A stretch of DNA of 43,496 nucleotides from a virus (Duplodnaviria > Heunggongvirae > Uroviricota > Caudoviricetes): IMG/VR virus record IMGVR_UViG_2718218360_000017. One strand, given 5' to 3'. Position 1 is the first letter of the stretch; each line of letters begins with the position of its first letter. The position numbers were made by a program, and so were the translations under genes. Below are positions 9,336-11,985 of the stretch, one piece after another. The notes beneath the pieces are model-generated. The model was not told the origin of the DNA. It saw only the letters and a program-made list of their open reading frames with translations, and did not search any database.

Positions 9336-10207
9336 CGCCCGCTCCCCGATAACATACCGCCATCACGCAACTGCAGCCGGAGCTCATCCTGCGCCCCCTT
9401 GCGGGCCATGTCATACACCGCCTTCATCAGCTGCGGCCCCGCCTGTCCGTTGGTGCCGTCGTTCTGAATCACCACGTGATTGTTCTGATTAAAATTAATA
9501 CCTTCCGCCCGCCGCATCTGCGCCGGACTTCCGGCACCACCCACATAACCACCTTCCGCATAGCCGCGCATCAGACGGTAAAGATTCCCCACACCTATCC
9601 GGCTGGTTGCCTCTTTCGTGAAAACAAACTCCCCGCGGTGAACTATCCCCGCAGGCTCATATTTGCCGCCCGTCCCCGTAAATCCTCCGGTCGCGAAATG
9701 GAAGTTCGCCGCCGCAGCCTCAATGGCCGTCCCCGAGGAAGCAGATGCACCACCACCGAAAGCACCGCCAATGGCGCTGCCGATACGCCCGACAATGCCC
9801 ACCATGGCCTGTTTAAGCAGGATTTCTGTCATCATGGACAGCACCGAACGGGTGAATCCCCGCCAGTCTGCCTCTGCACCGGTCAGCATCGCCGCCATAT
9901 TCTGTGCAATACCGTCAAAGGTCTGCGTGGCCGCGCTTTTAACCTGCGAAAAACTGTCCGTCGCACTTTCCGCCCACTCCCCCCAGCCGGACTTCAGCCC
10001 GGCCAGCCAGTCACCGCGCAGCATGTCTTCATCCGCCCATGTCTGTTTCAGTGCCCCGGTGACCCGGGCCAGCGCCTGCGGATTATCACCGTACACGTCC
10101 CGAAGACGCTGCGCTTCAGACTCCCGCTGCGCCTGACGGTCAGTGAGACCGCGGGCTTTTGCGCTGATGGCGGCCTGCTTCGCGCTCTGCTGCTCTTCAA
10201 ACCGCAC
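9332..10207 (-). CDS. H: Tail tape measure protein H, C-terminal portion (gene split by a frameshift)
   Basis: Lambda gpH C-terminus (..FHFATGGFTGTGGKYEPAGIVHRGEFVFTKEATSRIGVGNLYRLMRGYA..); the frame continues upstream to about 10490 (..LEAELRTLEKHSGANEKISRQRRDLWKAE..). Confidence 0.85.
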   Translation of the reverse strand: MRFEEQQSAKQAAISAKARGLTDRQAQRESEAQRLRDVYGDNPQALARVTGALKQTWADEDMLRGDWLAGLKSGWGEWAESATDSFSQVKSAATQTFDGIAQNMAAMLTGAEADWRGFTRSVLSMMTEILLKQAMVGIVGRIGSAIGGAFGGGASASSGTAIEAAAANFHFATGGFTGTGGKYEPAGIVHRGEFVFTKEATSRIGVGNLYRLMRGYAEGGYVGGAGSPAQMRRAEGINFNQNNHVVIQNDGTNGQAGPQLMKAVYDMARKGAQDELRLQLRDGGMLSGSGR

Positions 10208-10356
10208 CGCCTGCTGTGCCAGCTCATTCAGGCGTTTCTGGTGTTCAACCTTGTCGCCCAGGTCAGCCAGCTGGCGTTTGTACTCCAGCGTCTCTTTCTC
10301 ATGGGCCAGCAGGGATTTTTCCTGCTCAGATAACTGTCGTTTCGTGGCAGCCTCTT

Positions 10357-11985
10357 TCAGGACCGCATACTGACTTTCCGCCTTCCATAAATCACGGCGC
10401 TGCCGGCTGATTTTCTCATTCGCACCGCTGTGTTTTTCCAGCGTCCTGAGCTCAGCTTCAAGGGCAAGCAGGCTTCTCTTGCCTGCTCCTCTTCCCTCTC
10501 CCCGGCAGAGCGCGTTTTCGGTGATGTATGCTTTTTACCTGTCAGCTCTTCAGCCAGACGGCTGACGGCTTCCTGCTGCCCTGGACCTTTGCTGACGCCT
10601 GTTGCACGCGAGCGGTTGATGTACCCCATTTCCCCCTGGCGTATACGCGCATCCCGTTCCGCAATGGATTTTCTCAGCGCCAGTTCATCGCGTTTTGTTT
10701 TCTCAATAAATACGCGGTTCTCTTCTGCCAGTTCACCAAACAACGCACCAACGCCGGGCACATTCTTTGTCGTTTCCCAGGCTGACTGAATAAATTCAGC
10801 CAGCGCCAGATCCCCCTGCACAAGCAGCAGCTTCACTTGTTCAACGGTTCCGGCCACCACGTCAGTGATCAGACTGAGTGCCCCCAGTGTATGATCACCT
10901 ATCCATGCCCATGCGTCAGAAGTCCAGGTTTTAACATCGTCCCAGATTTTTTCCACCGGCGTGGCCGCTTTATCAAGTTGCTCCAGACGTGCATTCATGA
11001 CATCCGCAAACAGGGACATCGCCTCCGTCACCGCAGCCTGTTTACCTTTCGTGCGCTCAAGCTCATCAATATGGCGTAACTGGGAAACGCTCAGGAAGTT
11101 ATACTGCTGATTCAGGGAGGCCAGCGCCTTCACCGGATCTGCTGCAATCCCTTCAAAGGCTTTTTCCACCTTCCCGGCATCGTCCCCCACCGTCTGCAGC
11201 CATCTCTGAGAGGTTTCCCCCATGATCCGTAGCTGCCCGGCGGTATATTTCCCGCTTTCTGCCAGACGGGCCAGATTTTCTGCCGCCTGTCTGATACCAC
11301 CACCGGCTTCATCGCTGATCACCCCGGCCATTTTCCACAATTCTGCCGTTGTGGTGGCAGCCGCCCCTCCGGTCAGGATCAGTGAACGCAATAAGGCCCG
11401 ATCAGCCTGCTCTGCCTGCCAGGCGGCGGCAGCAAGCGCGGCCAGTACGGCAACCCCGCCACCTGCCGCCACACGGGCCACCGACATAAATCGTCCCAGC
11501 TCACCGGCATTCCGGGCATTTTCAGCCAGTGCATTTGCCGTATCTGACAGCGACTCCTCTGATGATTCAGAGGCATCCCTGATCCCGAGAAGTTCCTCCT
11601 TCAGCAGGGTAAGCAGGCTGAGCGGTCCACCGAATGAATCGCTGATCTGCCCCCCCTGCTGCAGCATGATAAGGAAGGGATTCTGACCACCGGCAAGCTG
11701 AGTGACAATATCCGTGAACTGTGCGGGCAGTGTGCGCATGGCAGCCTTATACTGTCCGACTGATATCCCGGCTTTTTGTGCAGCCAGCGCCTGTCGGCTC
11801 AGACTCTGCTCAGCAGCATCAGCCTGTTTTCTGAAAGACTGACTGACTTTCCCGGACATCAAATCAGCAAGCGCACTGGTTTCACCCAGCTCTTTTTTTA
11901 CCCGCGCTGCCTCTTCAGAAAAACGGGCAGAATCCAGTGTCAGCACGGCTGTCAGATCGGCAAAATTACCTGCCATCGTGGTCAC
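10357..11985 (-). CDS. H: Tail tape measure protein H, N-terminal portion; frame lost after ..TRSAGE near 10485
   Basis: 542-aa ORF with lambda gpH N-terminal/central homology (..QSLSRQALAAQKAGISVGQYKAAMR..); the last ~50 codons look like out-of-frame read-through. Confidence 0.85.
   Translation of the reverse strand: MTTMAGNFADLTAVLTLDSARFSEEAARVKKELGETSALADLMSGKVSQSFRKQADAAEQSLSRQALAAQKAGISVGQYKAAMRTLPAQFTDIVTQLAGGQNPFLIMLQQGGQISDSFGGPLSLLTLLKEELLGIRDASESSEESLSDTANALAENARNAGELGRFMSVARVAAGGGVAVLAALAAAAWQAEQADRALLRSLILTGGAAATTTAELWKMAGVISDEAGGGIRQAAENLARLAESGKYTAGQLRIMGETSQRWLQTVGDDAGKVEKAFEGIAADPVKALASLNQQYNFLSVSQLRHIDELERTKGKQAAVTEAMSLFADVMNARLEQLDKAATPVEKIWDDVKTWTSDAWAWIGDHTLGALSLITDVVAGTVEQVKLLLVQGDLALAEFIQSAWETTKNVPGVGALFGELAEENRVFIEKTKRDELALRKSIAERDARIRQGEMGYINRSRATGVSKGPGQQEAVSRLAEELTGKKHTSPKTRSAGEREEEQAREACLPLKLSSGRWKNTAVRMRKSAGSAVIYGRRKVSMRS

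Follow-up and report, generated by a model that had tools for sequence, protein, structure and literature searches.

Lambda gpH and its orthologues in EHEC prophages (VT1-Sakai BAB19568.1 and WP_097453818.1) share one Pfam architecture, TMP_2 followed by Tape_meas_lam_C, and are encoded within the tail gene order G-T-H-M-L-K-I-J. The lambda operon also possesses a slippery site, G_GGA_AAG, at its G-T junction. The window, by which we mean the whole 43,496-nucleotide stretch of lambdoid prophage DNA that was analysed, has the same domain architecture and gene order. Its tail operon is transcribed on the minus strand, and H sits between the G/T chaperone genes and M-L-K-I-J, following the annotation of VT1-Sakai and of L005, the sister prophage in an O111:H8 strain. 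The window H gene is 97–99.9% identical at the nucleotide level to many prophage H genes, and its product, once repaired, is 881 aa long, as in those prophage relatives. It differs in that it is written without one base and as two ORFs, whereas every relative examined at the site has one ORF.

Among enterohaemorrhagic strains, O157 Sakai carries defective lambdoid prophages with frameshift mutations, and their defects are complemented by other prophages (PMC2669165). In polished long-read assemblies, the errors that are left over are for the most part homopolymer indels, and they occur disproportionately where short reads map to multiple places (PMC11232133), and assembly errors of this type falsely pseudogenise genes (PMC12007338).

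One base missing from the tape-measure gene

The initial annotation had H split by one 1-nt indel into an N-terminal 542-aa ORF and a C-terminal part, and the alignment bears this out. Against four near-identical intact H genes, the window shows exactly one gap in 2752 alignment columns, corresponding to one coding-strand T. In every close relative, whether E. coli genome or Stx phage, the counterpart of the 2751-nt window segment is 2752 nt long, and the gene there is annotated as a single intact 2646-nt tape measure protein ORF. The features of the gene and its lesion are as follows:

9332–11976, minus strand: H, lambda-H-type tail tape-measure gene, 881 aa with one base restored
Between 10471 and 10472, minus strand: site of the missing base; relatives have T on the coding strand, A on the plus strand
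10357–10470, minus strand: out-of-frame end of the N-terminal fragment, 37 aberrant codons (CLPLKLSSGRWKNT...SMRS) and a stop, from three-frame translation and the gap position
9332–10471, minus strand: C-terminal 379 codons of H (residues 503–881) and the stop, now in the -1 frame; contains Tape_meas_lam_C

Across positions 10471/10472 the deletion form reads GAAGCCTGCTT and the intact form reads GAAGCTCTGCTT. The gap context is GAA GC[T] CTG CTT, so that GCTCTG becomes GCCTG, and there is no homopolymer. The break had originally been placed near 10485 in a G/A-rich run; the actual gap lies 13 nt away and outside that run, and the junction then read as 'GRGAGKRS' is a wrong-frame translation of the native EREEEQAREA. 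The true junction joins ...SAGEREEEQAREA to LLALEAELRTLEKH..., which can also be written as ...EEEQAREA followed by LLALEAEL....

By three-frame translation, the H-like protein begins MAGNFADL... at the ATG at 11976 and runs to ...SAGEREEEQAREA, beyond which it is out of frame; the H-like reading resumes as LLALEAELRTLEKHSGANEKISRQRRDLW... in the -1 frame and continues down to the stop at 9332. The 542-aa ORF of the ORF listing (10357–11985, minus strand) begins at a GTG three codons 5′ of the ATG of the relatives. Counted from that ATG, the N-terminal product comprises 539 aa, of which 502 are native residues and the following 37 are aberrant. Both parts retain a recognizable domain above the Pfam gathering score: TMP_2 (PF06791) on the N-terminal fragment (163.9 bits, 5e-48) and Tape_meas_lam_C (PF09718) on the C-terminal part (77.1 bits, 1e-21). 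A gene of this family is expected to be one uninterrupted ORF of about 850–880 codons. As written, H is not; re-insertion of the one base yields an uninterrupted ORF at 881 aa, and the sole difference between its product and the H protein of the sister prophage (WP_097453818.1) is T842I.

The deletion was queried in several sequence collections. In 635 complete E. coli genomes, a 61-nt probe with the gap at its centre matched 1433 homologous places, and 0 of them carried the deletion; all 1433 matches, at 95–99% identity, possess the extra base, and there were no 100% matches. The deletion was likewise present in 0 of 21 phage records, and an exact 29-mer carrying it had no match in IMG/VR, JGI metagenome contigs or GTDB genomes, with the intact version of the pattern, used as a positive control, detecting 2 IMG/VR contigs. 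A look-up through the Lom product returned O157:H7-type loci only, none of them with the deletion. Among all sequences searched, the H lesion is private to this window.

Private indels confined to one interval of the prophage

Positions 22001–43496 of the window are 100.0% identical to the same prophage in the O111:H8 strains 7-58 72A and 7-55 62A. In a full alignment to the 7-58 72A prophage (L005), we found no differences over 10472–43496 and one SNP, at 2679, over 1–6425. The intervening 6426–10471 contains single-base indels together with a patch of substitutions at 8080–9455. The features of this interval are as follows:

8060–9720, minus strand: substitution-only mosaic patch (5′ part of K, L, M and 3′ end of H), identical to an O157:H7 allele bar one base
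6426–8207, minus strand: 13 further private single-base indels breaking J (N-terminus), I and K, from alignment to L005
Deletions among these 13: 6426, 6608 and 8207
Insertions among these 13: 6576, 6699, 7084, 7141, 7142, 7148, 7181, 7252, 7815 and 7825

Several other elements of the prophage were noted along the way. The SNP at 2679, the sole private substitution outside 6426–10471, falls in Lom (2585–3184, minus strand) and puts Thr in place of Ile at residue 169, a variant that O157:H7 prophages commonly have. Beside the Lom and tail-fibre genes, at the end of the prophage, lies the type III effector gene nleG7 (1–651, plus strand). Rfam searches detected the prophage-borne anti-GcvB sRNA AgvB (26258–26319, plus strand, 96.5 bits), STnc100 (26320–26513, minus strand, 144.7 bits) and a weak tRNA match (26600–26659, minus strand, 37.3 bits) that has no ARAGORN call and is annotated by RefSeq as tRNA-Met in the sister genome.

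The patch at 8060–9720 is the allele of the O157:H7 FRIK2455 prophage except for a one-base contraction, C5 to C4, at 8207; some 40 substitutions separate it from the O111:H8 sister prophage. Judged by this identity, the patch is a natural allele and shows natural variation at this locus. Its presence suggests recombination between lambdoid prophages, or else a chimeric assembly or a polishing step that drew on a paralogous copy.

With the patch allowed for, the private changes in 6426–10471 amount to 14 one-base indels (10 insertions and 4 deletions) and no substitution. In twelve of these 14, a base run has become longer or shorter or an adjacent base has been doubled, as in GGG to GGGG, A5 to A6 and CC to CCC; the two outside base runs are the H site and 6426. 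The indels sum to net zero in J (-1, +1, -1, +1) and to net +6 in I, sums for which the chance is estimated, with 70% insertions assumed, at about 0.26 for J and at least 0.12 for I. Frame compensation in J and I was considered and rejected, as stop codons lie within the out-of-frame stretches and chance alone would be expected to yield such sums.

The indels are absent from everything to which they were compared. Over 6300–8000, 13,175 homologous places were compared in 3,956 genomes, and even the best of them differs from the window by all 12 indels. Thirteen window 21-mers, one of which covers both 7141 and 7142, span the 14 indels, and they occur in none of the 19 loci fetched. The annotation of the sister prophage L005 has J, I, K, L, M and H all intact.

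The clustering and the composition of these changes can be expressed as probabilities. Were 14 events placed uniformly, all would fall within 4046 of 43,496 nt with a probability of ~5e-13; were indels to make up 10–25% of natural changes, all 14 of 14 private changes would be indels with a probability of 1e-14 to 4e-9. Outside 6426–10471, homopolymer runs at least 5 bases long number 215, and none of them differs from L005; the cause is therefore local, being neither a genome-wide mutator nor a generally poor assembly. Within the interval, indel density is 7.3/kb over 6426–8207 and drops to 0.4/kb beyond 8207, and the H gap is 2264 nt from the nearest other indel. An independent event would fall as near the cluster as the H gap does with a probability of ~0.10, which argues only moderately for a link between the gap and the cluster.

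The breaks in J, I and K that had been reported to accompany that in H are indeed present in the sequence. From these and the H break together, the initial annotation had concluded that the tail is non-functional. This stands for the sequence as written, in which J, I, K and H are all broken, so that no working tail would be encoded. Biological decay is not supported: the 14 private indels, with no private substitution, occupy 4 kb of an otherwise identical 43.5-kb prophage whose sister has intact tail genes.

Explanations for the gap

A cluster of indels in a multi-copy module, with no substitutions among them, is typical of errors in an unpolished consensus. A pseudogene would be expected to carry indels alongside more numerous substitutions, and 6426–10471 holds 14 indels and 0 substitutions; its lesion would also be expected in independent assemblies of related strains, and the genome, phage and metagenome searches returned none. 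A consensus error would be expected to be private to one assembly amid identical sister genomes, which is what we observe. The indel-only, private and clustered pattern thus fits a consensus or assembly error better than pseudogenisation. We put the probability that the H gap is a sequencing, assembly or polishing mistake, and not a dead gene, at about 0.78 from these sequence comparisons, and in the organism itself H is very probably an intact gene.

Mechanistically, the H gap would lie at the outer edge of a local patch in which 14 single-base length errors affect the J-I-K-L-M-H tail module. EHEC genomes each contain several near-identical copies of this module, making it hard to assemble and hard to polish with uniquely mapping reads; in the sister genome, tail segments are found at 6–9 places, a count taken for tail segments only. 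We infer both the technical cause of the indels and the repetition of the module as the reason for it.

The principal alternative, which we regard as unlikely, is that the deletion is real. H would then have suffered a recent private frameshift: its 502 native residues would be followed by 37 aberrant ones, and the C-terminal 379 residues would be lost. The prophage, unable to make a tail by itself, could spread only where co-resident lambdoid prophages provide H in trans, and the indels in J, I and K may or may not be real. The break is, after all, present in the sequence as given, and the H site is non-homopolymeric and distant from the dense cluster. Nonsense or frameshift lesions are found in H of other EHEC prophages, and defective EHEC prophages with frameshifts, complemented by other prophages, have been described (PMC2669165). 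Against this, the H lesion is common to no other genome searched and adjoins 13 changes of technical look. The rest of the prophage carries one private substitution in about 39 kb, from which we estimate ~0.01 real private indels in a 2.6-kb gene. If the deletion is real, knowledge established for lambda gpH would predict that, with Tape_meas_lam_C lost, self-encoded tails fail unless H is supplied by a co-resident prophage.

All other explanations are, even together, very improbable. One holds that all 14 indels are real and stem from error-prone repair synthesis or from gene conversion by a heavily decayed paralogous tail module. The tight clustering of the indels would suit such a process, and the substitution patch at 8060–9720 shows that co-resident lambdoid prophages do exchange sequence by gene conversion. 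A decayed donor would, however, be expected to carry substitutions too and to show up in sister genomes; of the 13,175 homologous places, none comes nearer than L005, and L005 itself lacks all the indels. Gene conversion from a decayed paralogue was rejected as no such donor is found among these places. We know of no process that makes solely +1 run expansions over 4 kb without base substitutions, and we hold this explanation to be highly improbable. Just as remote is the conjecture of 14 real run-length changes left by a local episode of frameshift mutagenesis, or by deliberate inactivation of the tail module through multiple hits. The prophage lineage would then be very young, and H function might be restored in trans or through slippage at a low rate on a T_AAA_AAG motif (10536–10530, minus strand).

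The same motif figures in the least credible explanation, a two-frame H that is functional: a -1 shift in the overlap (about 10537–10357), for instance at T_AAA_AAG, would produce full-length H with ~21 residues replaced. The initial annotation had allowed for deliberate frameshifting at the break it described. In E. coli, an A-site AAG after a run of A is a weakly slippage-prone motif; T_AAA_AAG is of this type, and the -1 frame is open from it onward. The motif lies in the zero frame of H, about 60 nt upstream of the gap, and as it is also present in the intact relatives, it is not a designed site. Programmed frameshifting at H was rejected, with no canonical X_XXY_YYZ heptamer between 10545 and 10357 (relaxed NNN_YYY_Z matches only) and with a single uninterrupted frame in 1433/1433 homologous places and 21/21 phage records, so that the two-frame layout is conserved in no homologue.

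The same operon does contain a genuine canonical -1 site at the G-T junction, which shows the form that a real site takes here. The two ORFs at this junction are:

12355–12777, minus strand: G, tail chaperone gene
12020–12328, minus strand: T, ORF downstream of G

The heptamer, A_AAA_AAG at 12379–12373 (minus strand), is in the correct register at the end of the chaperone gene G, 1.9 kb upstream of the H break, and a -1 shift there gives a 252-aa G-T fusion. In every relative fetched, RefSeq annotates T as a separate partial gene ('incomplete, missing C-terminus') downstream of G.

If the gap is an artefact, as we favour, the prophage is not to be scored as tail-defective, and the assembly calls for repeat-aware polishing across about 6.4–10.5 kb of the window. 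Bar the mosaic patch at 8060–9455, this nleG7-carrying prophage matches a sister with all tail genes annotated intact; given the effector cargo and the intact tail genes of the sister, a wrong 'immobile' call would understate its transfer potential. If the gap is real, the prophage joins the defective EHEC prophages that are already well described. No new biological question follows from either outcome, and the finding is ordinary in both cases.

Comparison with known systems

Like the defective Sp prophages of O157 Sakai (PMC2669165), the window is lambdoid, carries an effector cargo gene (nleG7) and has apparently disrupted morphogenesis genes.

Broken H copies occur in public EHEC prophage sequences. 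The O157:H7 prophage loci L009 and L010 possess an in-frame stop at codon 447 of H and 51–52 substitutions relative to intact H; L012, also from O157:H7, has a 1-nt deletion and 132 substitutions; and the FRIK2455 H gene (L007, 3774–6386) is annotated with an 'internal stop'. These four, taken from public assemblies, may themselves be real or artefact. Broken public copies differ from intact H by tens of substitutions or more, whereas the lesions of the window are private and indel-only and lie in a prophage identical to an intact sister copy.

The G/GT programmed frameshift and the H break are both -1 frame changes within the tail operon. The former possesses a canonical in-register heptamer and a separately annotated T, while the H break has neither heptamer nor conservation.

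Relative to the gene-fragmenting errors of long-read and hybrid assemblies (PMC12007338; PMC11232133), which are run-associated, the H site itself differs in not lying in a homopolymer. In other respects the window resembles them, as a match by pattern alone: it likewise shows single-base indels, for the cluster as a whole mostly in runs, with an indel-to-mismatch ratio far above 1, in a region whose segments recur at several places in the sister genome, giving rise to apparent pseudogenes that are absent from close relatives.
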